In this document: in pieces, positions 1 to 58,588 of the stretch | Numbering within the stretch: the stretch's first letter is position 1 | Layout of the letters: the number at the start of each line of letters is the position of its first letter | NCBI GenBank assembly: GCA_045648665.1 | Contig: JAZROL010000008.1 | Coordinates: forward strand, 4,064-68,063 | Direction of reading: 5' to 3' | Origin: Candidatus Enterousia sp. | GTDB taxonomy: Bacteria; Pseudomonadota; Alphaproteobacteria; Rs-D84 | DNA: 64,000 nucleotides | Translations under genes and position numbers: made by a program | The notes under the pieces: model-generated | What the model saw: only the letters and a program-made list of their open reading frames with translations | What the model was told of the DNA's origin: nothing | Database searches by the model: none

Positions 1-1
1 G

Positions 2-97
2 TATGTGCGTCGTGTTCGTGAAATTGCCAAAGAGGAAGAAAAAGCCGAAAAATTGGCACGCGAAGGTGGCGAACAACAACAATTATTGGATATTTAA
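2..97 (+). CDS. 3' end of an unidentified CDS, 5'-truncated by the window edge (ends ...EEEKAEKLAREGGEQQQLLDI*)
   Basis: Open frame 2 runs from the window edge to TAA at 95-97. Lies upstream of rpmF. Product not recognisable. Confidence 0.3.
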   Translation, partial: YVRRVREIAKEEEKAEKLAREGGEQQQLLDI

Positions 98-165
98 ACA
101 AATAATAAACCAAAGGAAATGCCCGGCGACCGCTTGTGCGGAAAACCGGGCATTATAAACGAAAA

Positions 166-567
166 ATGAAACAAGAAATACCTGCGATTTTTTGCGATAT
201 AGATGGTGTTGTCACGCATAAGTTTGCTGTACCAAATTATGACCATTTTGGTGAGCCTAATACAGATATGATACCGGTATTGGAATGTCTGGGGCGCGAT
301 TTCACAATAGTATTTATTACCGGTCGTTGGGCAATGGGACAAGAAAATGCGGAAGATTTTATAAATAAACTTTTACCGAACATAAAAAAGAAAGTTTTTT
401 GTAAATCGCACGATTATCCCGGAACAACGGCTGAATTTAAATTGGCAACTATCATAGAGTTAGAAAAACAGGGGTATAAATTCCATTTTGGAATTGATGA
501 CCACAGCGCAGTTGTTGGTTTAATGCATAATCACGGTATGTTCATAGCCCAAGCTTTAAGTGATTAA
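166..567 (+). CDS. HAD-superfamily hydrolase/phosphatase
   Basis: ORF 136..567; probable start at ATG 166 (MKQEIPAIFCDIDGVV). HAD motif I DxDGV, motif VFITGR, and GIDDH near the C-terminus. Confidence 0.55.
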   Translation: MKQEIPAIFCDIDGVVTHKFAVPNYDHFGEPNTDMIPVLECLGRDFTIVFITGRWAMGQENAEDFINKLLPNIKKKVFCKSHDYPGTTAEFKLATIIELEKQGYKFHFGIDDHSAVVGLMHNHGMFIAQALSD

Positions 568-636
568 TCTAATTTTTTGCTTGCAAATGGGGAATAATTG
601 AATAGAATTAACAAAGTCAAATAAAAGGATTGTAAA

Positions 637-786
637 ATGGCAACTCCAAAAAGTAAAACAAGTAAAGCTCGTTCTGCACAACGTCGTTCACATGATGCTT
701 TGTCAGTAATGCCGGTCAGCGTGTGTAAAAAATGTGGTGAAAAGAAACGTCCACATCACGTTTGCCCTGCGTGTGGATCAAAATAA
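637..786 (+). CDS. rpmF: 50S ribosomal protein L32
   Basis: 49-aa ORF MATPKSKTSKARSAQRRSHDAL...CKKCGEKKRPHHVCPACGSK. Zn-ribbon L32 signature, RBS AAAAGGA upstream, immediately 5' of plsX (conserved rpmF-plsX linkage). Absent from the ORF track (<60 aa). Confidence 0.8.
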   Translation: MATPKSKTSKARSAQRRSHDALSVMPVSVCKKCGEKKRPHHVCPACGSK

Positions 787-850
787 TCTTGTAATCTAAG
801 GGATTAAAGGGCGGGGGTGGTTTTCATCAAAGCCCTTTTTTTATATAAAA

Positions 851-1927
851 ATGACAGAATCAAAAAGAATTATTTCAGTTGATGCAATGGGCGGCGATCA
901 TGCGCCCCAGGCTGTACTTGGTGGAATGAATCAATTTTTATATCAATACGGTGAAGACACTGTGTTTTTCCGTGTATTTGGTAATGAACGAGTATTGCGT
1001 TCAATGTTGAAAAAATTTCCACGTGTTGCACGTAATTGCGAAATTATTAATGCTAACGAGGTTGTATCTGGTACTGATAAAGTTCGCGATGTAATTCGTC
1101 ATGCCCAAGATACTTCGATGTATATGGCGATAATGGACGTGCGTGATGGTAATTCATCCGCTGTGGTTTCTGCTGGAAATACAGGGGTTTTGATGGCTTT
1201 ATCAAAATTGGCTTTGAAAACAGTAGAAGGTATTTCGCGTCCAGCAATAACAACAATGTTGCCATCTGGAAACGGGGACAGCAAGGTTGTAGGTCTGGAT
1301 TTAGGCGCAAATGTTCAATGCGATGAAGAAATTCTGTTTGATTTTTCTATTTTGGGTAGTGTTTATGCCGAAATCATCGGCGGAATGGAACGTCCGCGTG
1401 TTGGAATATTAAACATAGGCGAAGAAGAAACCAAAGGTAGTGAACCTTTGCAAAGATTAAACAAGATTTTAATGGAACATATCGATGAATTGCCTTACGA
1501 ATACATCGGGTTTGTGGAAGGCAACGATGTCACCGCTGGAAATGTTCAAGTTGTCGTCACAGATGGCTTTACAGGCAATGTAATGTTAAAAACGGTAGAA
1601 GGTACCGCCAAAATGATTTCTCGTATTGTAAAGGCAAATTACAAGCGTTCTTGGCTGGCAATATTAGGGACTTTCTTTTTGATACATTTATTCAAAAGAT
1701 TGAAACATAAAATAGATCCACGTTCATATGCTGGTGCTGTATTTTTGGGATTGAATGGATTTTCTATAAAAACACATGGGAACAGTGATGCTTTGGCTTG
1801 GTCGCATGCATTGGAATATGCAGCGAATTTATCGCGTTCTGATTTTTATGGAAAAATACGTGAACGCACAAGCGCATTATCAAATATAAAGAAAGAAATC
1901 AAAGAATTGGGTAAAAACGGGGAGTAA
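851..1927 (+). CDS. plsX: phosphate acyltransferase PlsX
   Basis: 358 aa. N-terminal ISVDAMGGDHAP motif typical of PlsX; full-length similarity pattern. Confidence 0.9.
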   Translation: MTESKRIISVDAMGGDHAPQAVLGGMNQFLYQYGEDTVFFRVFGNERVLRSMLKKFPRVARNCEIINANEVVSGTDKVRDVIRHAQDTSMYMAIMDVRDGNSSAVVSAGNTGVLMALSKLALKTVEGISRPAITTMLPSGNGDSKVVGLDLGANVQCDEEILFDFSILGSVYAEIIGGMERPRVGILNIGEEETKGSEPLQRLNKILMEHIDELPYEYIGFVEGNDVTAGNVQVVVTDGFTGNVMLKTVEGTAKMISRIVKANYKRSWLAILGTFFLIHLFKRLKHKIDPRSYAGAVFLGLNGFSIKTHGNSDALAWSHALEYAANLSRSDFYGKIRERTSALSNIKKEIKELGKNGE

Positions 1928-1943
1928 AAATCCCCGTTTTTTT
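1917..1943 (+). terminator. rho-independent terminator after plsX
   Basis: Hairpin acgggga-gtaaaaa-tccccgt followed by a T7 run. Confidence 0.6.
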
Positions 1944-2008
1944 AAGATTAGGTTCTCCGGGGGGCGGAACTTATTCTCTGGAAAACAAGGATAAAAACTG
2001 GCACGGGC

Positions 2009-2045
2009 GGTACAACCTGGACCAGTGAATGCCGTGTATGTCCAA
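2009..2045. repeat. IR-L: 37-bp perfect inverted repeat (ggtacaacctggaccagtgaatgccgtgtatgtccaa), partner at 2994..3030
   Basis: Base-by-base reverse-complement identity verified by hand. Encodes (G)TTWTSECRVCP in both cassettes. Confidence 0.9.
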
Positions 2046-2479
2046 GTGCGATTGTTTTGGTTGCAGACGGCAGTGCCGCTATGAACAAAACTGCATATGA
2101 ACTGGATAAATCTGTTGCTTATGCTACAGAAGCAGGCTTTGGCGTATCACAAGAAGAAAGAATTGTTATATTGCCAGGAAATGTTAGATATAGAATAGCA
2201 AAATCAGAAAATGATTCGAATGGTGGAGGTTGGGTAGATATTTGTACAGGTACAGGAAGCACATTAAAATGTAATAAAACTTGCGGTACTTCCGGTGATT
2301 CCTCATGTGCAGATGGAATAAATGATGACGGTGCATCAACTGAAGATGATATTAGAAAATTTGTTGCCCTTGTATCTTCTGGTGGTCAGGCTACATCATG
2401 TAGTTGTCCAATAGGTTATACACAAGTGGTACACAGATACACAACAACAGAACAGGATTCTTCTGGTAAACCAAAGGAT

Positions 2480-2503
2480 AACCCAAAGTGGAAATCTGGT
2501 GAT
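2480..2503. repeat. inner 24-bp inverted repeat (aacccaaagtggaaatctggtgat), partner at 2635..2658
   Basis: Identical 24-mer in inverted orientation. Encodes NPKWKSGD at the extreme C-termini of both cassettes. Confidence 0.85.
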
Positions 2504-2545
2504 ACAAGAACCTTCTGTGTGTTCACACCGGAAAGCAAATCATAA

Positions 2546-2575
2546 TAAAAAAACCGCCGAAAGGCGGTTTTTTAT
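2546..2575. terminator. bidirectional rho-independent terminator between the two convergent cassettes
   Basis: aaaaaaaccgccgaaaggcggttttttatt: GC hairpin flanked by A-run and T-run. Confidence 0.7.
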
Positions 2576-5298
2576 TAACTATCAGATCCCGTTGTGGATT
2601 TTTGCTCTGGTGTAAATACACAGAATTTCTTTACATCACCAGATTTCCACTTTGGGTTAGCTTTCGGCGTACCAGAAGCTGTTCCGTTTTCCGTTTCTGT
2701 AGTTGTATACCTGTGGGATATTTCCACATAACCAGAAGGACAATTACAACTTACAACTTGACCACCAGAAGATGTCAAATTAACAGTAGCAAAAACATCA
2801 TCTTCAGTTGTTTTGCCTGACTCATAAGCATTGGTTATACCACCATCTTGTTTAACGACACGATACGTGTTTCCACCCGCGAAAACAACAGCTGTACTTG
2901 TTGATGATGTGACACCATTGATAGCAGAATCAAGCGCATATGGTGTTGCCGGAACGGTTCCATTGGTGTCCATTGCTACCAATACAGTTGCTGTTGGACA
3001 TACACGGCATTCACTGGTCCAGGTTGTACCTGTCATGCCACTTTCATACAGATAATAATTTTCTGGGCATGATGTCAACATGCTGCCAACCCAGTCAGAC
3101 ATTTGACGCAATGTCAACTTGGTATTGTCGCTTGGTTTCCATCCACCAACGGACATACATGTTTGGATGTATGCACGGCAAGCGTTTACCGCAGTTTGTG
3201 ATGCCGTTGTGTAAACGTTTGATTCATCATATCCATTTGATGATAAACAAGATGTGACGTCACTACGGCAATCCTCGACATAATTGGACAAGATTTCATC
3301 TTGGGCCAATTTAATTTTGGTCAAAGTCGATGCCAAATACTGACGGACAACTTCATTATCTGGTTTATATGCTTTTTTGGATTTATTTGTTGTGTATGTG
3401 TAATCTTGGCATTGTTTCATAACAGATGCACACATACCATGAACTTTGTCATTTTCATCGATATAACCAATTTTTTGTAATAAATATGTGGCCATATCTT
3501 CATTTGGTTCTGTGCTTGTATAAACCTTCTTTGAACTCCAATTATTCAATGCCGCATTAATATATGCACCCAAAGTTTCTTCCTGGCCAGCCCCCCATGC
3601 ATTAAGCGGTTGTCCGCTCGCCGGATTGGATGTTTCGCTATCTTCTGTGCCACAAGTGCTGCCCTTAATAGGACTGCCTGTTTTTGCCTCTTTACCAACT
3701 TGTTTTGTTCCTTTGTAATTCCAAGTTTGGTACAATTCGTACATACCGCCACTGGTCCATTCAGTCGCATTTGAATGATATATTGGACACTCATTAGCGG
3801 ACATACCACCGGAAACACCAGGTGTTCCACCAATTACGATTTCACCATTTGCGATGTATTTACCGGTTGGATCCAAACATAATTCATAATCTGAACCGCA
3901 AACATATTCATCCTGCATACAGGCGTCAATTGCCGCCACGCATCCACGAACGTCATATGTGTTACGATTTTGTGCCAACATTAAACGTGCCTGTTGTAAA
4001 ATTGTTGATGCATTACGGACATTGTTGCGCATTTCATCGTTTGCTTCGTTCAAACTGCGTTCATAGATAACACATTGTTTGTCGATTTCCAAATCATATG
4101 AATTTGTGATAACATTTGCCTCTACACCCTGAGCTGTGCAATTTTGCAATACCTGGGTTTTACAACGATTAGCAGCTGATTTATATAATTGTTCACCACG
4201 TTGATTAATAACACTGGTTGTAGATTTGTTGTTTGTTGTATTAAAGAACGACGTCAAATCAAATCCTGCTGTAAAATCAGCGTCTAATAAACCAGATAAA
4301 TCAAACGATATACCACTGTTTGTTTCGTACGAAGATGCATTTGGTGATGACACGTCAATGATCTTACGTTTGATTGAATCCAAACTTGTTTTTAATTGTG
4401 ATTTATCCGTGTTGGAACGCATAGCGACTTCTGCTTCGGTTTCTGTGAACAAAGTTTCAATTTGTTCGCCGGTCAAACCGATATATTTGATCTTTTGTAT
4501 AACGTCTTGGAATTGTTCGGTCGCACTTTTTAAGGTTTCTTCTGTTTTTTCATAATTCTTTACGTTCTTTGAACAAGTACAACGACCCTGGTTATCGTCC
4601 AAAACATTACAATAATTATCCATACATGCCGCGTATTGCGCTTTGCATAAATCAGTTAATTCCGCCAAAGCATTTAAATTTGCCGATGTCTGATCAACTT
4701 CTTCCTGAGTAATTACAGGTGTTGATGCAACAGCGACAGGTGTTGATATACGTGCGGTTGAACGACGTCCGGCAATTCCGACACGAGATGCGGTTTCAGA
4801 ACCAACCTTTGAAGCACCAGTCGCGTTGTATTTTACATTAGAATCATTTAATGTCTTAATAGTTGTGGCATTAACCATACGTGGTCCAGTAGTTCCACTG
4901 ACCCCGACACGTGCAGTCACAGGCTTTGCAGATGTTGCAGAACGCGCAGATACACGCGTTGGTGTTGCGGTTCTTGCTGTTGTTCTGGATGTAGTACCAC
5001 GAGAAACCGTTGCGCGTGGGTTTGCAGCCATTGCACGAGAAGATGTATTCACGCGTGATGATGCAGTTGCTGCGCCGGTCGAAATTGCGCGTGACGAAGA
5101 ACGATTAATGTTCGTTCTTGGTTGCGCCTTTTGCACAGATTGTGATTCCACCGCTTCATTTTCGACAGCATCAACGGCATCAATCATGTCGTCTGTGTAT
5201 TCAACAATCTCGTCGTAATAGATTGGTGCAACCTCTGCAAATGCAGGCAAAACAAGCAATCCACTTAAAACAGTTATAAATCTTTTCATGGTATTCAT
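2575..5298 (-). CDS. large secreted Cys-rich protein (907 aa) with swappable C-terminal domain; N-terminal signal peptide, Ser/Thr/Arg/Ala-rich low-complexity region, Cys-rich body
   Basis: Signal peptide MNTMKRFITVLSGLLVLPAFA. Long S/T/R-rich tract, many Cys. C-terminal 190 aa paralogous to the 2003..2545 cassette. Confidence 0.75.
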   Translation of the reverse strand: MNTMKRFITVLSGLLVLPAFAEVAPIYYDEIVEYTDDMIDAVDAVENEAVESQSVQKAQPRTNINRSSSRAISTGAATASSRVNTSSRAMAANPRATVSRGTTSRTTARTATPTRVSARSATSAKPVTARVGVSGTTGPRMVNATTIKTLNDSNVKYNATGASKVGSETASRVGIAGRRSTARISTPVAVASTPVITQEEVDQTSANLNALAELTDLCKAQYAACMDNYCNVLDDNQGRCTCSKNVKNYEKTEETLKSATEQFQDVIQKIKYIGLTGEQIETLFTETEAEVAMRSNTDKSQLKTSLDSIKRKIIDVSSPNASSYETNSGISFDLSGLLDADFTAGFDLTSFFNTTNNKSTTSVINQRGEQLYKSAANRCKTQVLQNCTAQGVEANVITNSYDLEIDKQCVIYERSLNEANDEMRNNVRNASTILQQARLMLAQNRNTYDVRGCVAAIDACMQDEYVCGSDYELCLDPTGKYIANGEIVIGGTPGVSGGMSANECPIYHSNATEWTSGGMYELYQTWNYKGTKQVGKEAKTGSPIKGSTCGTEDSETSNPASGQPLNAWGAGQEETLGAYINAALNNWSSKKVYTSTEPNEDMATYLLQKIGYIDENDKVHGMCASVMKQCQDYTYTTNKSKKAYKPDNEVVRQYLASTLTKIKLAQDEILSNYVEDCRSDVTSCLSSNGYDESNVYTTASQTAVNACRAYIQTCMSVGGWKPSDNTKLTLRQMSDWVGSMLTSCPENYYLYESGMTGTTWTSECRVCPTATVLVAMDTNGTVPATPYALDSAINGVTSSTSTAVVFAGGNTYRVVKQDGGITNAYESGKTTEDDVFATVNLTSSGGQVVSCNCPSGYVEISHRYTTTETENGTASGTPKANPKWKSGDVKKFCVFTPEQKSTTGSDS
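2635..2658. repeat. inner 24-bp inverted repeat, partner of 2480..2503
   Basis: Reverse complement identical to 2480..2503. Confidence 0.85.
2994..3030. repeat. IR-R: 37-bp perfect inverted repeat, partner of 2009..2045, located inside the 907-aa gene at the constant/variable junction
   Basis: Reverse complement of 2994..3030 equals 2009..2045 exactly. Confidence 0.9.
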
Positions 5299-5384
5299 CC
5301 TTCCTTGTATGAATTAATTTTACCATATACGTGAAACCCACGCAAGAGAAAAAAACACAAAAAAATTACAAAAAAAGAAAAAAG

Positions 5385-5834
5385 TTAATTATTGATTTTT
5401 AAATTTGGTTTTTTAGTACGCAATTTTTCCAAAGAATTTTTTTGCGCCTTTGAAAAATCATCCGGATTCCAAATTTGAAATCCATTACCACGACCGACGA
5501 ATAAAGCCGTATCTGTTATATTTGCATGCTTTAATAAATCAGATGGAATAACTATGCGCCCGGTAACATCAAACATTAATGGACGTGCATCTGCAAAAAT
5601 CATTGCGGTTAAATCATCCATAGTGTCATCAAACATATCTGTATTGTCAGTTGCACCAGCTATTTTTTCCATACGGGACATGGACAGACCTTCTATGCAA
5701 TTATGTTTAAAAGAACGATAAAGAATAACGCCGGCAAAATTTTCATTTATTAATGAAGAACGAAAAGCAGCAGGCACAGAAATACGTCCTTTGGTATCCA
5801 AACGATTTTCATAGCAAGAAAGAAATAATCCCAT
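5385..5834 (-). CDS. mraZ: transcriptional regulator MraZ
   Basis: 149 aa with two DxxGR(I/L)xxP repeats (DTKGRISVPAAF and DVTGRIVIPSDL). Not followed by mraW/ftsL here. Confidence 0.8.
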   Translation of the reverse strand: MGLFLSCYENRLDTKGRISVPAAFRSSLINENFAGVILYRSFKHNCIEGLSMSRMEKIAGATDNTDMFDDTMDDLTAMIFADARPLMFDVTGRIVIPSDLLKHANITDTALFVGRGNGFQIWNPDDFSKAQKNSLEKLRTKKPNLKINN

Positions 5835-6206
5835 TCGATTTTTCCTTTGTAAACTTTGCGCGCTTTTTGTTCTTCGATTGCGAATATAGCAAACGCTTTT
5901 ATGGTTGTCAATGACAATTAATAATTATTTTATGGGATTTTATGGTTTTTATAATAAAATCAGCATTTTTAAAAATAAAATTAAAATAAATTAATTTTGT
6001 GCTTGACGTGCGATTCGTTTTTGTTCTAAGATGTTTGTATAGACAAGGAGAAAATAAAACCAAACCATTGGAAATCCGGATAAAACCAGAAATCCAGTGA
6101 AAATTAAAAAATCGAAAAAATTTAAAATAAAAAATTGTAAATACACTGGTAAACACAAAAATTTTAAGTTTTTTCTACAACAAAAAAGCAAAGGGGGGAA
6201 CGCCAC

Positions 6207-6542
6207 ATGCCAAAAAATATAAAAGAAATAATGATTGCCCTTAACAAAGTGTTGACTACGACTGTTTGGGTTAATGCCGATCGTCAAATCGTTTCTTTGA
6301 GTGATGAATTGCATATCGGTAACAATAATGCGCCACGTTCAATCGAAGATTTGTCGCGTGCTGCATTGATTGGTGCGTATGTTTCGTTGCAAATCAGAAC
6401 TGATAATTTTGATGTTGCTGCTGAAACATTAGATACCGCCGATTTGGCTTTACGTGTTAAAGAAATGGTTTTTGCAGAGGCTAAAAAGATTATGGATGCA
6501 GGTGAAGTGGACGAAAAAGCTTCAAATCGTATGGCTGCATAA
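6207..6542 (+). CDS. hypothetical protein
   Basis: 111-aa ORF with a -35 TTGACG / -10 TAAGAT promoter upstream and a terminator hairpin downstream (6575..6606). Confidence 0.4.
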   Translation: MPKNIKEIMIALNKVLTTTVWVNADRQIVSLSDELHIGNNNAPRSIEDLSRAALIGAYVSLQIRTDNFDVAAETLDTADLALRVKEMVFAEAKKIMDAGEVDEKASNRMAA

Positions 6543-7995: not shown

Positions 7996-9276
7996 TTAAT
8001 GTTTAGATAATTTGTTTATCAAATCTTTAATTTTATCTGTGTAATTATCTATATCCAATGTATTTGGTAAATTGGTTGTGTCATAATTGTTTACACGATA
8101 TTTTACTTCTATTTGGTTTTGAGCCAGATTTTTCTGGGATACAATCAAACGTATCGGTGCAGCAACCAAATCAGCATCAGCAAATTTCTCGCCCGCACGA
8201 TTATCACGAGCATCTAATAAAACTTCGACACCAGCATTTTTTAAATCATTATAAATTTTTTCTGCCAAAGGTAAGGTTTTATTTTCTTTGTCAGGCAACC
8301 CGATTACTTCAACTGCAAAAGGCGCGGTTTCCATATTCCAAATTGGTCCGTTATCGTCTGCGCTTTCTTCAATAATCGCAGCCATAACACGTGAAACACC
8401 AATTCCATAGCAACCCATGATAGGTGTTTTTTCTGTGCCGTCTTCGGCTGTATAAGTCATGTGCATAGAATCAGTATATTTTTTGCCCAATTGGAAAATG
8501 TTTCCAATTTCAATACCACGAACTTTGTTCAAAGTTTTTCCGCATTTTGGACATACGGTTGAATCTGTTTCTTCAAGTTCTTTGTTTGCACGGAAACCAC
8601 AATCGCAAATATACAAAGTATCTTCGCCCATTTCATTTATTAATTGAAATTCGTGTGCAATTTTCCCGCCCATATCGCCAGTTGCAGACATAACGTCTGT
8701 CACGTTTTTCAAGCCACATCTTTTGTAGATTTTATAGTATGCGTCAAAACAACGTTTATAATATTTTTCTAAATCTTCTTGTGTTTCATGGAATGAATAA
8801 CCATCTTTCATGATAAATTCACGTGTTCTGATTAAACCAGCGCGTACACGCAATTCATCACGGAATTTAGTTTGTATTTGATAAACCATGAAAGGCATTT
8901 GACGATAAGATTTAATCACAGAACGTGCATAATCTGTGACAACTTCTTCATGCGTTGGACAAATTACATAATCTGCACCGGAACGACTTTTAAATTTTGC
9001 AATATTATCCATGGAATCATAACGACCTGTTTCTTTCCACAAATCAGCGCCGCAAACAACAGGCATCAACATTTCTTGACCGTCAATTGCATTCATTTCT
9101 TCGCGAATAATATTTTCTATTTTGCGAACAACAGACCAACCCAATGGTGTTAATGTGTAACCACCTTGGAATGTTTGATATATATAACCACCTTTGACAG
9201 CGATTTTATGTCCGCGTGTTGTTGCACCTGCAACATCTCCGTATAATCTATTTACGCATAAATTTTCTATTTTCAT
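7996..9276 (-). CDS. proS: prolyl-tRNA synthetase, short form lacking the editing insertion
   Basis: Class II aaRS motifs; CPTHEE and other ProRS-like blocks. 426 aa, i.e. the editing-domain-less type. Confidence 0.7.
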   Translation of the reverse strand: MKIENLCVNRLYGDVAGATTRGHKIAVKGGYIYQTFQGGYTLTPLGWSVVRKIENIIREEMNAIDGQEMLMPVVCGADLWKETGRYDSMDNIAKFKSRSGADYVICPTHEEVVTDYARSVIKSYRQMPFMVYQIQTKFRDELRVRAGLIRTREFIMKDGYSFHETQEDLEKYYKRCFDAYYKIYKRCGLKNVTDVMSATGDMGGKIAHEFQLINEMGEDTLYICDCGFRANKELEETDSTVCPKCGKTLNKVRGIEIGNIFQLGKKYTDSMHMTYTAEDGTEKTPIMGCYGIGVSRVMAAIIEESADDNGPIWNMETAPFAVEVIGLPDKENKTLPLAEKIYNDLKNAGVEVLLDARDNRAGEKFADADLVAAPIRLIVSQKNLAQNQIEVKYRVNNYDTTNLPNTLDIDNYTDKIKDLINKLSKH

Positions 9277-12204: not shown

Positions 12205-13698
12205 TTAAAAAGAATATTTTAAACCGATATGCAATCCAAAAGAACGCCATGTTGCTTCTTTTAAAGATTCCGATATGTATTCGGTATATGCTGGTTGTTT
12301 TTCAATATAGTAATTTCCCAAATCATCTTCTACAAAATAGTAAGATTCCGCGACATATAATTCCCCCGGTATTTTACCAACATGGAAATAATCTGTATTT
12401 GCTTTCAAAGATAATTGCATGCGGTCAGACAGATTATATGTATATTCCATTTCTGCTTCGTATGCAAACGCACCATTATCGCCTTCATCTAAGAAACTAG
12501 GGTTTTGTTGCCAGTCATCACGATTCGGCCATGTTCCTTCGGATGAATACTTTGGCATGCTGACCTGGACATAAAAACGCAATTTATCAGCCAGTGTCAT
12601 TTGTTTTTCCATTTCCAAACCTAAATAAAAACCAGACCAAGTAGTTTCATAAATATGTGTTGTTCCACCAACACGAATAACCCCATCGCCACCAATAACT
12701 ACACAATCGCCCTGGACAACGCCCCATGGTAAATCGCCCATAGCAGGATTGTATCCCTGGGTGGTTAATGTTCCTTCTAATGGGAAAATGATACCATCTA
12801 TGCCAGGACCATAAGTATTCCCAACAACCATGATGTCTTCCGGCCCCATACAAACCTGGTACAATCCGGCATCGTCGGCGATATTAACATTTGTTGGAAC
12901 CGCATAATATGTGGTTGTTTCGTCCAAAGATGCAGAATCACCAAATACATAATCACCACTGGCCGTCATCAAAGGCAGATATATACCAGGATTAGGATAC
13001 AAATGGTCGCCCATCTTTAAATTATGTTTGAAAATTTCATAACCGATATGCGGTGATATTTTCCAACCGCCTAAATCCCAAACATGATGTGCAGATACCC
13101 CAAATTTCAAGCGATTGGTATCGCCAGTTTCATTACCAATAGAAACAGTGAAAATTCCTTCTGCTGGATATGAGTAATCGTATGGTTCCAAATCATAATC
13201 CATAGACATGCCACCACTGGATAATTTTCCATATGTATAATCTGCGTACACACCCAAATCAAAACCACGAATATCAAAAACGTGTTTTGCGCCAACATTG
13301 ATTTCGTTGAAAATCATGTCGTCCCATTCCAAAATGGAATTAACGCCAGTTTTAAATTCAAAATCCGCAAATCTGCGTGCATATGCAGCATAAACAGTTG
13401 TATTGTTTTCATCTGTTGGTGTTGCAACACCATTTTGTGTCATTGTACCACGTGATGGTTCCGGAATATATCTGGTGCTTGGCACCTGATAAGAATAAGA
13501 GTCAGATGATAAAACTTGTTTTTTACCAGTGTTACCAACATAATCAGTATATCCATAATTTTTGTATTTACCATATGCGGCACGATTTGAAGTAATCGTT
13601 CCATCTTGTTGATAATAAGAAGGAACACCTTCCTTTGACGCAAAACACGCCAGAGGTAGCATAAAACCACTAAAAACAGATATAATTCTTTTTCTCAT
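12205..13698 (-). CDS. outer-membrane beta-barrel protein (unknown porin-like)
   Basis: Signal peptide MRKRIISVFSGFMLPLACFA. Aromatic-rich alternating strands. C-terminal ...GLKYSF with terminal Phe. Confidence 0.6.
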   Translation of the reverse strand: MRKRIISVFSGFMLPLACFASKEGVPSYYQQDGTITSNRAAYGKYKNYGYTDYVGNTGKKQVLSSDSYSYQVPSTRYIPEPSRGTMTQNGVATPTDENNTTVYAAYARRFADFEFKTGVNSILEWDDMIFNEINVGAKHVFDIRGFDLGVYADYTYGKLSSGGMSMDYDLEPYDYSYPAEGIFTVSIGNETGDTNRLKFGVSAHHVWDLGGWKISPHIGYEIFKHNLKMGDHLYPNPGIYLPLMTASGDYVFGDSASLDETTTYYAVPTNVNIADDAGLYQVCMGPEDIMVVGNTYGPGIDGIIFPLEGTLTTQGYNPAMGDLPWGVVQGDCVVIGGDGVIRVGGTTHIYETTWSGFYLGLEMEKQMTLADKLRFYVQVSMPKYSSEGTWPNRDDWQQNPSFLDEGDNGAFAYEAEMEYTYNLSDRMQLSLKANTDYFHVGKIPGELYVAESYYFVEDDLGNYYIEKQPAYTEYISESLKEATWRSFGLHIGLKYSF

Positions 13699-13758
13699 GT
13701 GTTTCAGTATAAAGTATTTTAACATAAAACACAACTTAAAAAAAGTGTTTAGTTTTTA

Positions 13759-33156: not shown

Positions 33157-33246
33157 GGATGGTTGGCAGAGCGGTCGAATGCGACGGTCTTGAAAACCGC
33201 TGACGGGGCAACTCGTCCGGGGGTTCGAATCCCTCACCATCCGCCA
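33157..33246 (+). tRNA. tRNA-Ser (anticodon TGA)
   Basis: 90 nt. Acceptor GGATGGT/ACCATCC, anticodon loop CTTGAAA, long variable arm, T-loop TTCGAAT, CCA encoded. Terminator hairpin follows. Confidence 0.8.
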
Positions 33247-33575
33247 GGAATAAAAACTTTAAAACACCCCCCCATCGGGGGTGTTTTTAGTTTTTACTGG
33301 CGGATGGTGAGGGATCGGTCAGAGCGAAGCGCATGACCAATCCGCAGATGAACAATTAAGAAAATGTTAAAAAATCGAAATTTATGAGATTTTTTTAATT
33401 TTCGTTATTTGTTTATCAAGAACAACCTTATTATACATAAAATGCTGTCAAACACCCAAACGGGTGTTTTTTTTGTCCCGTATAGTTTGGGATGAAGAAG
33501 CGGCATTTGTCTACTATAAAAGTTGACATTTTTTATTTTTGTGTTATATTTGCTTTATGAATCAAAGACACAGAT

Positions 33576-34609: not shown

Positions 34610-34937
34610 GATTCAATAAAAAACAACATGTTATTAAGAAACTGCCTTGTTTGGCGGTTTCTTTTTTACGAAAAAAAAGTGTTGCGTTTAATGTTTTTTT
34701 TGTTTTAAAATCAAATTGCAAAGCATGTTCAACAATGAACGCTTAATCCCTAAGTCAGGTCGGGCATGCTTTGCTTTTTTTAATTTTTTTTGTTTTATAC
34801 AGAACCGGGTTTTCCGTGGAAAAAGAAATTTTTTATAAAAATCAACACTTTTTTTTCATAAAAAATAAAAATTTTTTTACAAGGCGGATTTGGAAAGTGA
34901 TTGAAAATATGATATAATACCAATCAAAGTAGAAGAA

Positions 34938-35648
34938 ATGTACCATAAAAACATGCGATTTTCGTTGGTTTTTTCGGTGTTGTGTCTAGGTTTTGCGCCT
35001 GACATAATGGCTGCTCCGTCTGTGCGGGTGCTTGGCGGTGGTGCCTCTGGTGCTACTACATCCGGAACGACAGTATCTGCATCTGGGGTGACGGGTTTGT
35101 CTGGAACCAAGGCTGTGCCAGTGAATACAGCGAATCGTGTAAATACATCTGTACTGGGTACTGGAAATTTAGCGACCAAGAAAACATCGGCTGTGAAAGT
35201 TGGCTCTACGCCTGCGGCAACGATTGTGCAACCGGTTGCGAGAACAACTGCAAATGCTAATACCAGTCGAATCGGCAGTATATCCGCAAACGCAGTTAAT
35301 GGGACAGGTCGTATTCCAACTATGAAATTACCGAGTAAAATCCAAACAACGTATCGCCCGGTCCAGGTTGCAACGCCGACCGAACCAACACCTGCACCAG
35401 AGGTTGATTTATCTAATTACTATACCAAGCCTGAAATAGACGAAATGTTAGAAGGTTTGGATATAAATGTTGAAACGGTGACTAATTTGACCGAAGTGGC
35501 GAATCAAACAGTGCAACAACTGTATGAAACAACGAACACTATATATAATGTGAAAACAAATCAACGCGAATTGGTTTATGTTGCAGACATAGACGATTTT
35601 GACCATGGAATGTTTGACAGTTTAGAAACCGCGGAAGAAACAGATTAA
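34938..35648 (+). CDS. secreted low-complexity (S/T/G/A/R-rich) protein
   Basis: Signal peptide. Composition resembles the N-terminal low-complexity tract of the 907-aa protein. Acidic C-terminus. Confidence 0.5.
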   Translation: MYHKNMRFSLVFSVLCLGFAPDIMAAPSVRVLGGGASGATTSGTTVSASGVTGLSGTKAVPVNTANRVNTSVLGTGNLATKKTSAVKVGSTPAATIVQPVARTTANANTSRIGSISANAVNGTGRIPTMKLPSKIQTTYRPVQVATPTEPTPAPEVDLSNYYTKPEIDEMLEGLDINVETVTNLTEVANQTVQQLYETTNTIYNVKTNQRELVYVADIDDFDHGMFDSLETAEETD

Positions 35649-55746: not shown

Positions 55747-55886
55747 ATTTAGTTTCTTTGTTTTTATGATTATAGACTAAATATATATTTTGTCAATATG
55801 TTTTACGTTTTTTTGTGTTTTTAATTGACTTTCTGTAAATAAATGTATAAAATGTGTGGGCTTTCAGATGAAAGTAGCAAAGTTCT

Positions 55887-55910
55887 GGGGTTGTAGCTCA
55901 GTTGGTAGAG
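55887..55910 (+). repeat. duplicated 5' fragment (24 nt plus 11 nt upstream flank) of tRNA-Ala
   Basis: gcaaagttctggggttgtagctcagttggtagag occurs at 55876..55910 and 55963..55997. Confidence 0.8.
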
Positions 55911-55972
55911 GTAAGTTGCTTTACAGTGCAGCGGGTCTGTCAAAAGGGTTAAATCCTTAAATGCAAAGTTCT

Positions 55973-56048
55973 GGGGTTGTAGCTCAGTTGGTAGAGCACC
56001 TGCTTTGCAAGCAGGGGGTCGTCAGTTCGAGCCTGATCAGCTCCACCA
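55973..56048 (+). tRNA. tRNA-Ala (anticodon TGC)
   Basis: 76 nt, G3:U70 identity pair, anticodon loop TTTGCAA, T-arm TCGTC-AGTTCGA-GCC..., CCA encoded. Confidence 0.85.
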
Positions 56049-56114
56049 GAATAAAAGAAGCCGAAAAGGCAAGAACGAAAAAGAGAGACACCTTCTTGGG
56101 CAACCATCACCGTC

Positions 56115-56153
56115 TCGTCAGTTCGAGCCTGATCAGCTCCACCAGAATAAAAG
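56115..56153 (+). repeat. 39-bp direct repeat of the tRNA-Ala 3' end plus 9 nt flank (att-like scar)
   Basis: tcgtcagttcgagcctgatcagctccaccagaataaaag present at 56019..56057 (within and just after the tRNA) and again at 56115..56153. A terminator hairpin (gggatgaaaatcccctttttt) follows only the second copy. Confidence 0.8.
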
Positions 56154-56254
56154 GGGATGAAAATCCCCTTTTTTGATATCATATGAAAGTCAAGAAATTT
56201 AATGTTTTTTTATTTCGTTGTGTAATAATGTTCTTATATGATTGTGAATTTATA

Positions 56255-57037
56255 ATGAAAATAGGCGTTTTTGATTCTGGTTTAGGCGGTTTAGTTATAG
56301 CAAAGTCTTTGATGGATTCTTTGCCTTGTTATGATTATGTTTATTTTGGTGATACCGAACATTTACCGTACGGCGACAAAACAAATTTACAAATAAAAGA
56401 ATACACTGAAAATGCTGTGCGGTTTTTAATAAATCAAAATTGCAAAATAATAATTATTGCATGTAATACTGCATCTGCAGTGTGTTTGCGTTATATTCAA
56501 CAGGTCTTTTGTCCGAATTTGTTTCCAGATATAAAAGTTTTGGGTGTGATTATACCAACAATAGAAATCGCTTTAGATTATCAAGATAATAAAATAGGTG
56601 TTGTTGGGACAAACGCCACTATTAAATCTGGTGTGTATAATATAGAATTAAAGAAGAAAAAAACAGATATAGATGTCATCAGTATGGCAACGCCTGAATT
56701 GGTGCCTTTGATAGAATCTAATGATTTTGTCGGTGCAGAAAATATAATAAAGCAATATTGTAAAAAGTTGACAGGTATTCCTGTTTTAATATTGGGCTGT
56801 ACGCATTATCCGTTGGTAAAAGGTTTGTTTGAACAATATCTTCCAAATACAAAAATAATATCACAAAACGATTTTATGGGATATAAATTAAAGGACTATT
56901 TATCAAGACATTGCGAGATAGAAACAAAATTGACCAGAAATTCATCAAGAAATTTTTTTGTAAGCAAGATTAATCAAAAATATATAGAAATTGCAAATTT
57001 ATTGTTCCCAAGTGCAATAATAAAATCAACAAGATAA
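56255..57037 (+). CDS. murI: glutamate racemase
   Basis: MKIGVFDSGLGGL N-terminus, IACNTAS and GCTHYP catalytic Cys motifs. Confidence 0.85.
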   Translation: MKIGVFDSGLGGLVIAKSLMDSLPCYDYVYFGDTEHLPYGDKTNLQIKEYTENAVRFLINQNCKIIIIACNTASAVCLRYIQQVFCPNLFPDIKVLGVIIPTIEIALDYQDNKIGVVGTNATIKSGVYNIELKKKKTDIDVISMATPELVPLIESNDFVGAENIIKQYCKKLTGIPVLILGCTHYPLVKGLFEQYLPNTKIISQNDFMGYKLKDYLSRHCEIETKLTRNSSRNFFVSKINQKYIEIANLLFPSAIIKSTR

Positions 57038-57126
57038 AAAAACTTGTATTTTTATTTTTTATATTATAAAATCAGTCCCGACAATAACAAATAAATACAA
57101 ATTCGCCAAAAGGGGGTGAATACATA

Positions 57127-57333
57127 ATGGTTAAAGTTTTGGTCCGTGATAATAATGTTGAACAGGCTTTGCGTGTTGCAAAACGTAAATCACAAAAAGA
57201 AGGCCTGTATCGCGAAATGAAAGAACGTCAACGTTATGAAAAACCAACAACTAAACGTAAACGTTTGAAAGAAGAGGCTGTTCGTAACGAAAAGAAACGT
57301 CAATCAAAACAACGTATGGTCTTTGGTTTCTAA
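57127..57333 (+). CDS. rpsU: 30S ribosomal protein S21
   Basis: 68 aa, [10 protein letters not shown] motif, terminator downstream. Confidence 0.8.
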
Positions 57334-57436
57334 TTACAGAAATTTTGAAAAAAGCCGTCCAATTGGGCGGTTTTTTTTATTAAACTTGAACTCTGTATTT
57401 GTTGTGGTTGTATCTGGACAATAAAAAAGGACAGAT

Positions 57437-58588
57437 ATGACAATGAATAAATCAAAATTTTTAAAAGAAACAGAACTTTGCCAAATGGTGCAAAAACTGT
57501 ATCAACAACAACAGTTGTTATTCAAGATGATGCAAAGTTTTACGAACCAAATAAAATCTACAAATGTAAAAAATAAATCAAACCCACCAACAATCGACTA
57601 TGTATTGAAACGGTTTGTGAACAAAGACAAACAAAACAGTGAAGAACCAGAACGTAAATATAATGCAATAAGCAAATATATAAATGCAGTTGGTTTGAAT
57701 TTGAATGAAAGTTATAATAACTTACATAACGAATTGATATTATCAAAAATTATAAATGCTATTATTGCGCGAACTGATATCAAGGGAAACCAGAAAATTC
57801 GTCATGCGCGATGGATTACTGGTTTTGCAAAGTTCGCTGTGTTCGCGTATCCTGATTTATATAAAACAGATGTTTTAGTTGGTCTGCCTTTGATAGAAAA
57901 AACTCCTAAAAGCGAAAGACAGCCACATACACCATACACAGATTTACAATTAAAGCGTATATTTGATCCGTCCAGGAAATTTTTTCGTAAATATCCGGAT
58001 TTATATTGGGGGTGTATGATAGCACTTTTTACAGGTGCGCGAAAAAATGCGGTATTCACATTGCAATACAAAGATATTTTTATCAAAGATGGATTTTGGT
58101 GTATAAATTTTATCCAAGATTGCCCCGGAATAAAAAAACTTAAAACAGAAGATTCAGAACGTATAGTTCCAATTCATTCTGCGCTGATAAAAATGGGCTT
58201 TTTAGACTACATTAAAAGAAAAATTCATAATTCAAGCACTGGTTTTATATTTGAAAAAATTTGTTTTAATGCGATGGGAAATTTGAATTCGCATATGGTT
58301 AGAAATTTTTTTTATTTTCTGGAACGCATAGGTATAAGAAATTTTGAATCTGGGCGTTATGATTTTCATTCTTTTCGTAAAAACGCAAATATAACAATGG
58401 AAAAATGTGGCATGATACGTTCGTACATAGACAAAATAATCGGTTGGCAGAGCAGGGGCAGTGAAGGTGAACGTTCTTATTCAAATTATACGATAAAGCA
58501 ATTAGCGGACCAGTTGGAATTGTTGCGTTACGATTGTTTGAAAAAAGAATTTAAACAATGGAAAAAGATTATGGCGACAATAGGCTGA
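57437..58588 (+). CDS. phage-type tyrosine recombinase/integrase
   Basis: Catalytic-domain signatures TGARKNA (box I Arg), HSFRKNA (H-x-x-R), C-terminal RSYSNYT (Tyr). Confidence 0.75.
   Translation: MTMNKSKFLKETELCQMVQKLYQQQQLLFKMMQSFTNQIKSTNVKNKSNPPTIDYVLKRFVNKDKQNSEEPERKYNAISKYINAVGLNLNESYNNLHNELILSKIINAIIARTDIKGNQKIRHARWITGFAKFAVFAYPDLYKTDVLVGLPLIEKTPKSERQPHTPYTDLQLKRIFDPSRKFFRKYPDLYWGCMIALFTGARKNAVFTLQYKDIFIKDGFWCINFIQDCPGIKKLKTEDSERIVPIHSALIKMGFLDYIKRKIHNSSTGFIFEKICFNAMGNLNSHMVRNFFYFLERIGIRNFESGRYDFHSFRKNANITMEKCGMIRSYIDKIIGWQSRGSEGERSYSNYTIKQLADQLELLRYDCLKKEFKQWKKIMATIG

Follow-up and report, generated by a model that had tools for sequence, protein, structure and literature searches.

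Does an inverted repeat buried in a coding sequence allow a bacterium to exchange the end of a secreted protein by turning round a short piece of its chromosome? This question is raised by a locus of Candidatus Enterousia sp. (Alphaproteobacteria; Rs-D84) on contig JAZROL010000008.1, of which a stretch of 64,000 nucleotides (nt), referred to below as the window, was analysed. The minus-strand gene at 2575-5298 of the window encodes a protein of 907 amino acids (aa), and its 3' end faces a silent, truncated copy of its own tail on the plus strand. We favour, with moderate confidence, the reading that this locus is a gene-altering invertible cassette, which would swap the variable C-terminal tail of a conserved secreted protein of the Enterousia lineage.

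The two tails are bracketed by the 37-mer GGTACAACCTGGACCAGTGAATGCCGTGTATGTCCAA, which stands at 2009-2045 on the plus strand and whose exact reverse complement stands at 2994-3030, that is, on the minus strand. An earlier note on this DNA had called the repeat perfect, and the repeat search indeed found 0 mismatches between the arms; translation likewise bore out its claim that both arms encode TTWTSECRVCP in the reading frame of the protein (G-TTWTSECRVCP in full). At lower identity (85%) the outer repeat reaches over 71 nt, 1995-2065 / 2974-3044. A third copy of the 37-mer with at most 3 mismatches is absent from the 64-kb window; shuffled sequences yielded none, and 0 matches are expected by chance. 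Further in lies a second inverted repeat, which the earlier note had also seen and had given as 24 bp; it is perfect over 25 nt (2479-2503 / 2635-2659), forms the core of an 82-nt repeat of 78% identity (2460-2541 / 2597-2678), and differs in sequence from the 37-mer. The outer and inner repeats are the two strongest inverted repeats of the window. The parts of the locus, in order of position, are:

1913..1943, plus strand: terminator hairpin and T-run of plsX (fold -17.1 kcal/mol, z = -3.4), which shields the silent cassette from read-through
1998..2008, plus strand: short stub that opens the silent copy at its 5' end, only partly similar to the constant region (comparison with the spacer of the relative L001)
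2009..2045, plus strand: IR-L, left arm of the 37-bp repeat, at the 5' edge of the silent cassette (repeat search)
2046..2545, plus strand: cassette B, the silent alternative C-terminal tail, 166 codons plus stop, free of stops in the frame set by the repeat
2479..2503, plus strand: left arm of the inner repeat, 25 nt perfect, encoding NPKWKSGD; core of 2460-2541
2548..2573, unstranded: bidirectional intrinsic terminator (A-run, GC hairpin, T-run) common to both converging cassettes (terminator scan)
2578..2993, minus strand: cassette A, variable C-terminal tail of the gene as now expressed, 139 codons, with the stop codon at 2575-2577
2635..2659, minus strand: right arm of the inner repeat; core of 2597-2678
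2994..3030, minus strand: IR-R, right arm of the 37-bp repeat, within the expressed gene, codons 757-768 (repeat search and alignment)
3031..5298, minus strand: constant part of the expressed gene, codons 1-756 (open reading frame and alignment of homologues)

The plus-strand frame is open from 1952 to 2545 (197 codons). It was described in the earlier note as promoterless and lacking an ATG, and both points held: no ATG precedes the repeat, and a scan of the interval between the plsX terminator and the repeat detected no promoter-like site. By chance, cassette B would be free of stops with a probability of 8e-7; its remaining five frames hold 3-18 stops. Cassette B shares homology with cassette A, as well as with the tails expressed at the related loci L001 and L002. 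The middles of the two cassettes had been taken for unrelated, which proved mistaken: A and B are diverged homologues over their whole length (53% identical residues over 148 aligned positions), they differ by every type of substitution as well as by insertions and deletions, and all of the latter are in frame. Because homology with the L001 spacer stops at window position 1997, with similarity to the constant region starting at 1995, the silent copy must begin about 11 nt before the repeat. Both reading frames converge on the terminator at 2548-2573, whose bidirectional nature was supported by scan and by fold (-16.9 kcal/mol, z = -5.4) and which is a near-perfect palindrome; the silent cassette thus sits between two terminators.

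Reciprocal recombination between the 37-bp arms (2009-2045, 2994-3030) would flip the 948-bp segment 2046-2993, in which the two tail cassettes face each other across the one bidirectional terminator. The promoter, the signal peptide and the 756 constant codons (3031-5298) would stay fixed, the 907-aa protein with tail A would become a 934-aa protein with tail B, tail A would become the silent copy, and the common terminator would serve in both orientations. That such an inversion would graft the alternative tail in frame had been foreseen in the earlier note; when we inverted 2046-2993 in silico, the product was an uninterrupted 934 aa with no premature stop, and tail A was left as a silent frame of 170 codons. 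The predicted junctions of the flipped state are 1998-2008 followed by the 37-mer and CAGCAACTGTATTGG... on one side, and the constant region followed by the 37-mer and GTGCGATTGTTTTGG on the other; the predicted peptide of the flipped product is ...ESGMTGTTWTSECRVCP running into SAIVLVADGS.... A crossover at the inner repeat would swap only the last ~14-20 codons and yield a product of 901 aa. We infer both that the segment flips and that this serves variation of an exposed tail, through evasion of phage or host or through a change of binding partner.

Enterousia / Rs-D84 bacteria, which belong to the Alphaproteobacteria of gut and rumen, have not been cultured and are known solely through metagenome-assembled genomes, and we know of nothing that has been established about their surface biology. 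Their genomes are smaller than 1 Mb and lack the tricarboxylic acid cycle and respiration, so that dependence on a partner or host is presumed (PMC12306168). Homologues of the 907-aa protein number more than 1200 when clustered at 90% and fall into 632 clusters at 50%, and the family appears confined to the Enterousia lineage. A Sec-type signal peptide is predicted from the sequence (MNTMKRFITVLSGLLVLPAFA/EV), and would be followed by an acidic stretch, a low-complexity stretch rich in Arg, Ser and Thr, and a conserved, Cys-rich and mostly helical region. In the family alignment, the N-terminal ~750 aa are strongly conserved up to an invariant CxxC motif, the last of the family, which is encoded by the 37-mer; beyond it conservation collapses. 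Tail length, counted from the end of the constant part, varies between 3 and more than 1000 aa, and tail identity is often only 37-62% between strains whose constant parts agree at 97-99%. Family-wide, the C-terminal tail is thus a hypervariable and exchangeable module. What it does is not disclosed by similarity: searches of Pfam, NCBIfam, PHROGs, PADLOC and PDB profiles returned no match to the protein, long-tailed family members have no Pfam domain either, tblastn against phage records revealed no similarity to the protein or its tail, and Rfam gave no match on window positions 1-6500. The AlphaFold2 model (mean predicted local distance difference test score, pLDDT, 46.9) is too poor to use. 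The 'receptor-binding-like tip' of the earlier note must accordingly be regarded as a guess.

The gene order mraZ-gene-plsX-rpmF is kept across many Enterousia loci, including that of the closest relative, L001, whose protein is 80% identical. In the window, mraZ (5385-5834) is followed directly by the secreted-protein gene and not by rsmH and the division and cell-wall cluster; the same is seen in L001 and L166. Some species (L047, L049, L052, L062, L127) carry tandem same-strand paralogues of the gene, full or partial.

The design of the window recurs in other species. We surveyed 169 fetched loci of the family together with the window, about 150 of them with a complete gene, and sought in each locus further copies of its own tail at the DNA and protein level. 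Three loci, each from another species, have a truncated silent tail placed tail-to-tail with the expressed one and an inverted repeat exactly at the joint between constant and variable parts:

L027 (UBA1218): joint repeat of 31 nt (93%), plus 281 nt (92%) further in; silent frame of 240 codons; 34 nt from stop to stop
L044 (rumen metagenome-assembled genome): joint repeat of 59 nt (98%), encoding ...DGSGSPATMGAVSCEPCPA; silent frame of 188 codons; about 120 nt from stop to stop
L103 (JGI rumen metagenome): joint repeat of 51 nt (96%); silent frame of 158 codons; 45 nt from stop to stop

In all three, the silent frame is in frame with the repeat and open only a few codons before it, and a GC hairpin with flanking A- and U-runs, a bidirectional terminator like that of the window, lies between the cassettes. 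The silent frames of the window and of these loci are free of stops in 4/4 cases (chance 1e-5 to 1e-7), while the other five frames contain 3-23 stops each; no decayed cassette was found among the about 150 loci, against four intact ones. Among the 63 loci in which the gene and plsX are arranged as here, the usual gap is 40-130 nt, and a tail-like frame is found in it only in the window, L027 and L044 (the L103 contig stops before plsX). The paired cassettes of L044 and L103 are nearly unrelated outside the repeat, so that the repeat in these loci is not mere residual paralogy. The silent cassette of L044 resembles tails that are expressed in other species (L034, L089). On closer look, the remaining members of the L044 clade provided no further cases. 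A candidate in L058 was not counted: its 103-nt perfect inverted repeat (8178-8371) runs to the contig end and is probably part of a convergent paralogue. The inverted copy in L058 covers part of the constant region, and a DUF559-like open reading frame (ORF), recognised by eye, lies in between.

A pair of loci points to the repeat as a place of tail exchange. L103 comes from rumen sample Ga0310786 and L104 from another, Ga0265300. Over 5048 nt the two sequences agree at 99.66%; complete divergence sets in 21 nt into the L103 repeat, where L104 runs on in frame into a third, unrelated tail; this is not a simple flip of L103. Both contigs end within or just past the cassettes (L103 5903-7380, L104 4477-5570), as expected of a tangled assembly graph. 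A 12/13-mer, GGGTC(N)GGGCAG, occurs 5 times in the 1.59 Mb of fetched loci, in all cases at cassette junctions, and in two species: at both arms of L044 (7287 and 8539), at both arms of L103 (6455 and 7311) and at the joint of L104 (5029). The joints lie at non-homologous positions of the tails, and the motif is missing from the repeats of the window and of L027. Its distribution suggests a recombination signal in the L044/L103 clade; a shared origin as linker-coding sequence is the alternative.

Selection on the silent copies was assessed from the ratio of nonsynonymous to synonymous substitution rates (dN/dS). For the L027 cassette pair this ratio is 0.24 in the 281-nt block and 0.41 beyond it, values that are hard to reconcile with an unconstrained copy and that indicate constraint at the protein level on both copies. 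The 37-mer of the window was examined for codon identity: inside it, all degenerate codons at identical residues are identical between the cassettes (11/11), compared with 42/65 outside it (P ~0.009), which argues that the repeat is more uniform, though not dramatically so, than coding constraint explains.

A number of observations weigh against an active cassette. Part of the 37-bp identity is owed to coding constraint, since the repeat covers the CxxC motif and only 2 nt separate the 37-mer from its counterpart in the L001 orthologue, a gene without a spare cassette. The arrangement is rare (4 of about 150 loci), yet recurrent in two clades, and L001 as the closest relative does not have it. 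The repeats of the window, of L027 and of the L044/L103 clade have no conserved sequence in common, and no recombination core common to all four repeats was found beyond ATGTCCA, which reflects coding constraint on Cys-Pro. For the window cassettes, dN/dS is 0.62 at a synonymous distance (dS) of 0.72, which fits relaxed constraint on one copy. The flipped state was also sought directly. A query spanning the junction of the constant region with cassette B retrieved, from 5.8 billion proteins, only the silent ORF of its own contig, and a concatenation of the silent cassettes of L027, L044 and L103 with the tail of L104 retrieved only the resident L027 gene, the concatenation possibly costing sensitivity. 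Exact-protein look-ups found P0001 and P0121 not on record and P0122 on its own contig only. These searches had little power to reveal a flipped state, as each species is represented only once. Finally, as the earlier note had stated, no recombinase gene adjoins the segment: a Pfam scan of the window ORFs of at least 150 aa identified only the tyrosine integrase at 57437-58588 and no resolvase-family (serine invertase) match, no invertase lies within 5 kb of the cassette in the window, and L027 and L044 retain the gene order of the window, with ORFs within 5 kb that, unscanned, correspond in size and position to its housekeeping genes.

Several of these points would suit a static by-product of tail-allele exchange, in which a foreign or duplicated allele was captured in inverted orientation, for example by pairing at the palindromic terminator, and is too young to have decayed, without meaningful switching and without selection. 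Close strains do replace their tail alleles even where no silent cassette exists, as also between L022 and L023. We asked whether such strains keep the partner's tail as a silent cassette, and this proved not to be so: a cassette would not fit into the loci of P0090, P0110 and P0087, and tail variation in these strains is therefore allele replacement. The rarity of the arrangement, its absence from the closest relative, the missing recombinase nearby, the partly coding origin of the 37-bp identity and the dN/dS of the window pair, which fits one unconstrained copy, all belong on this side. On the other side, four cassettes are intact and none is decayed, and in each silent copy no more than a few codons are left ahead of the repeat. 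A neutral copy at half the distance of the window pair should, on our own estimate for 534 nt and a dS of 0.72, have accumulated several stops and frameshifts; cassette B has none, and its indels are all in frame. Purifying selection on both copies in L027 and the change of tail exactly at the repeat between L103 and L104 likewise speak against a by-product. We regard this explanation as the main rival, but a doubtful one.

Less probable still is that the silent cassette is a donor for non-reciprocal gene conversion, with the 37-bp and 25-bp repeats as anchors and the orientation constant. The known systems of this type, Neisseria pilE/pilS and Borrelia vlsE, have arrays of several promoterless cassettes from which segments are transferred non-reciprocally; the window holds one cassette only, with patches of homology on both sides of the variable core. 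These flanking patches of identity, the mosaic block structure of L027, and the fact that conversion needs no dedicated invertase speak for it, as does same-codon identity, which is raised between the window cassettes (65%, compared with 44% for the equally diverged orthologous tail of L001) and suggests some homogenisation. However, L044 and L103 have their repeat at the 5' joint only and no 3' anchor but the terminator, a single silent cassette offers very little diversity, and a tail-to-tail layout with a common bidirectional terminator is a need of inversion and not of conversion. We therefore consider conversion improbable as the function of the cassette.

An assembly artefact, in which tail alleles of two strains were fused head-on across the palindromic terminator, is suggested by the metagenomic origin of the genome, the polymorphism of the tails between strains and the near-perfect palindrome, but is very hard to credit given that, past the 37-mer, the silent copy departs in sequence from the constant region before giving way to a unique spacer homologous to that of L001, that no long exact k-mer is available for such a join, and that the same structure is present in four assemblies from different studies. 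Scarcely any weight can be given to an independent small gene either: the public annotation does call a 162-aa ORF (P0121) within cassette B, from TTG 2057, but that ORF has no promoter-like site, convincing ribosome-binding site or signal peptide, although the homologous tails belong to secreted Cys-rich proteins, its frame is open upstream through the repeat to 1952, and the silent frames of L027, L044 and L103 likewise begin at the repeat.

How does the invertible-cassette reading compare with switches already described? More than 11,000 loci have been predicted as gene-altering programmed inversions, a class defined by an inverted repeat of at least 22 bp, at most 15 kb apart, with coding sequences on opposite strands and an inversion that alters coding (Milman et al. 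2023, PMC9881135). Its signatures are a size asymmetry between the gene and a truncated partner and the loss from the silent partner of the region upstream of the repeat; some invertible regions have no recombinase nearby (PMC9881135). The same class has been named 'partial intergenic invertons' by Chanin et al. (bioRxiv 10.1101/2023.03.11.532203). In the window, the perfect 37-bp repeats enclose 948 bp, the 907-aa gene contains one arm, the other marks the 5' edge of the opposite-strand ORF, and a flip would recode the last 139 codons. The asymmetry is that of 907 aa to a promoterless frame of 197 codons; the two meet tail-to-tail, and each exchanged part has a repeat at its 5' end. The published class was defined by variants within a species or by reads of both orientations, and the case described here is known from the structure of the locus; in addition, the window offers no nearby recombinase, and the targets and taxa described do not include this protein family or Rs-D84. 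A literature search for Rs-D84 together with inversion found nothing.

Functionally, the locus appears closest to the pilin switch of Moraxella and to the Mu G segment. The type IV pilin Q/I switch of Moraxella bovis and M. lacunata consists of a single invertible segment of ~2 kb, one end of which lies inside the pilin gene, with Piv (DEDD, IS110-like) encoded adjacent to it. As in the window, the promoter and the N-terminal part are fixed and two alternative C-terminal parts are swapped; the target protein is a different one, and no counterpart of the adjoining piv gene is present in the window. The Mu G segment and the P1 C segment have an adjacent serine invertase (Gin/Cin), 26-bp gix/cix sites, an enhancer and a phage context. 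Their repeats likewise lie in coding sequence, and inversion joins the constant 5' part (Sc) to either of two variable 3' parts, as is predicted for the window; the window differs in having no resolvase-family ORF, a tail without similarity to phage sequences, and a conserved chromosomal location. In the shufflon of R64 and IncI1 plasmids, several segments are bounded by at least 7 sfx repeats next to rci, and C-terminal segments of a surface protein (pilV) are exchanged by inversion at short coding repeats, as predicted for the window.

The earlier note had placed the locus with the Mu G segment, the R64 shufflon and the invertible systems of Bacteroides. The layout, the frames, the terminator and the recurrence in three further species agree with an inversion switch of this general kind. 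A shufflon in the strict sense does not fit, given one segment, one outer repeat pair, an unrelated inner pair, no repeated sfx-like sites and no adjacent rci-type tyrosine recombinase. A Hin/Gin/Cin/Pin switch, with its adjacent resolvase-family invertase of about 190 aa and its imperfectly palindromic 26-bp crossover sites, does not fit either: a resolvase-family match is missing, and the 37-mer, inspected by eye, has no hix/gix-like dyad except the 5-bp TGGAC/GTCCA. A diversity-generating retroelement, which would combine a reverse transcriptase with a template repeat and a variable repeat in direct orientation that differ specifically at adenines, was also rejected: the Pfam scan detected no reverse transcriptase in the window ORFs, the repeats stand in inverted orientation, and differences between the cassettes include indels and every kind of substitution.

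Two other systems bear on the question of which enzyme might act. The vsa locus of Mycoplasma pulmonis uses the linked recombinase HvsR, 34-bp vrs sites and many silent genes, whereas sap inversion in Campylobacter fetus is RecA-dependent, involves conserved regions of ~600 bp and moves the promoter. Both concern the variation of surface proteins and resemble the window in their small or host-associated genomes and in having one expression site with a constant 5' part and promoterless silent 3' parts, and sap is a precedent for inversion by homologous recombination without a dedicated invertase. Unlike them, the window has a single silent cassette, and the repeats across the four loci measure 31-59 bp (plus the 281 bp in L027). 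That no invertase is encoded locally and that the repeats are not conserved speaks for homologous recombination or an enzyme acting in trans; the short, sharply bounded repeats and the core common to L044 and L103 favour a site-specific enzyme. A recombinase encoded elsewhere in the genome and RecA-type homologous recombination between the repeats seem about equally likely.

The tyrosine integrase of the window is of phage type (phrog_1) and lies 54 kb from the cassette and 1.4 kb from a tRNA-Ala gene (55973-56048). This gene is flanked by copies of its own halves (55877-55910 = 55963-55996, 34 nt, 100%; 56019-56067 ~ 56115-56163, 49 nt, 92%), for which reason the enzyme is probably an island integrase, though it may conceivably be the invertase; the duplications of the 55877-58588 region are probably scars of an integrated element. 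Beside the integrase are genes for DHFR and for two proteins with Listeria-Bacteroides repeats, and an HNH-like ORF.

Taken across the lineage, the comparative series points, tentatively, to a broader pattern. Rs-D84 bacteria may vary the exposed tail of a lineage-specific major secreted protein by cassette switching without a local invertase, through RecA or a distant recombinase, and in one clade with more than two cassettes per population (L103/L104) and GGGTC(N)GGGCAG as the signal. We consider this generalisation possible, and clearly less secure than the reading of the single locus as an invertible cassette.

Some further features were observed outside the cassette locus. At the spot where the window has its silent cassette, the gap between plsX and the gene in L001 contains ~190 nt of inserted GC-rich sequence (about 8850-9040) with internal CCCCACAGGGGGAG-like repeats, which may be a miniature mobile repeat; its core 14-mer has no match in the window at up to 2 mismatches, and GC-rich stretches are found in the matching gaps of L016 and L002. 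The motif AAAAAAAGTGTTG occurs five times in the window with at most 1 mismatch (about 1 expected), apparently always between listed ORFs: at 34658-34692 and 34835-34869, and also at 13738, 36471 and 55465. The first two copies form a 35-nt inverted repeat of 86% identity, 142 nt apart, upstream of the ORF at 34938-35648, and might function as a promoter or operator element, or as a small promoter inverton. The 3' end of a tRNA-Ser gene (33157-33246) is repeated in inverted orientation 37 nt downstream (33229-33253 / 33291-33315, 25 nt, 92%), which could represent a terminator-like hairpin or the remnant of an attachment site. At 12205-13734, the window encodes a 508-aa protein that matches the Protochlamydia outer membrane protein family (PF17251, E = 8e-10), unusual for an alphaproteobacterium.

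The gene keeps a fixed place between mraZ and plsX, and few features differ more from strain to strain than the tail of the secreted protein it encodes. For the study of invertons, the locus would add a target family without an adjacent recombinase, together with a set of loci for comparison (the window, L027, L044, L103/L104) whose repeats lie exactly at the joint of a module. If the invertible-cassette reading is true, a built-in switch of the tail would mark the protein as the main interface under selection, be it by phage, by host immunity or by partner recognition, and would provide a handle on phase variation, testable by polymerase chain reaction, in an organism known only from metagenomes. 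Should the broader reading with RecA or a distant recombinase also hold, it would mean Mycoplasma-like variation of antigens or of partner specificity in an uncultured, obligately dependent lineage.

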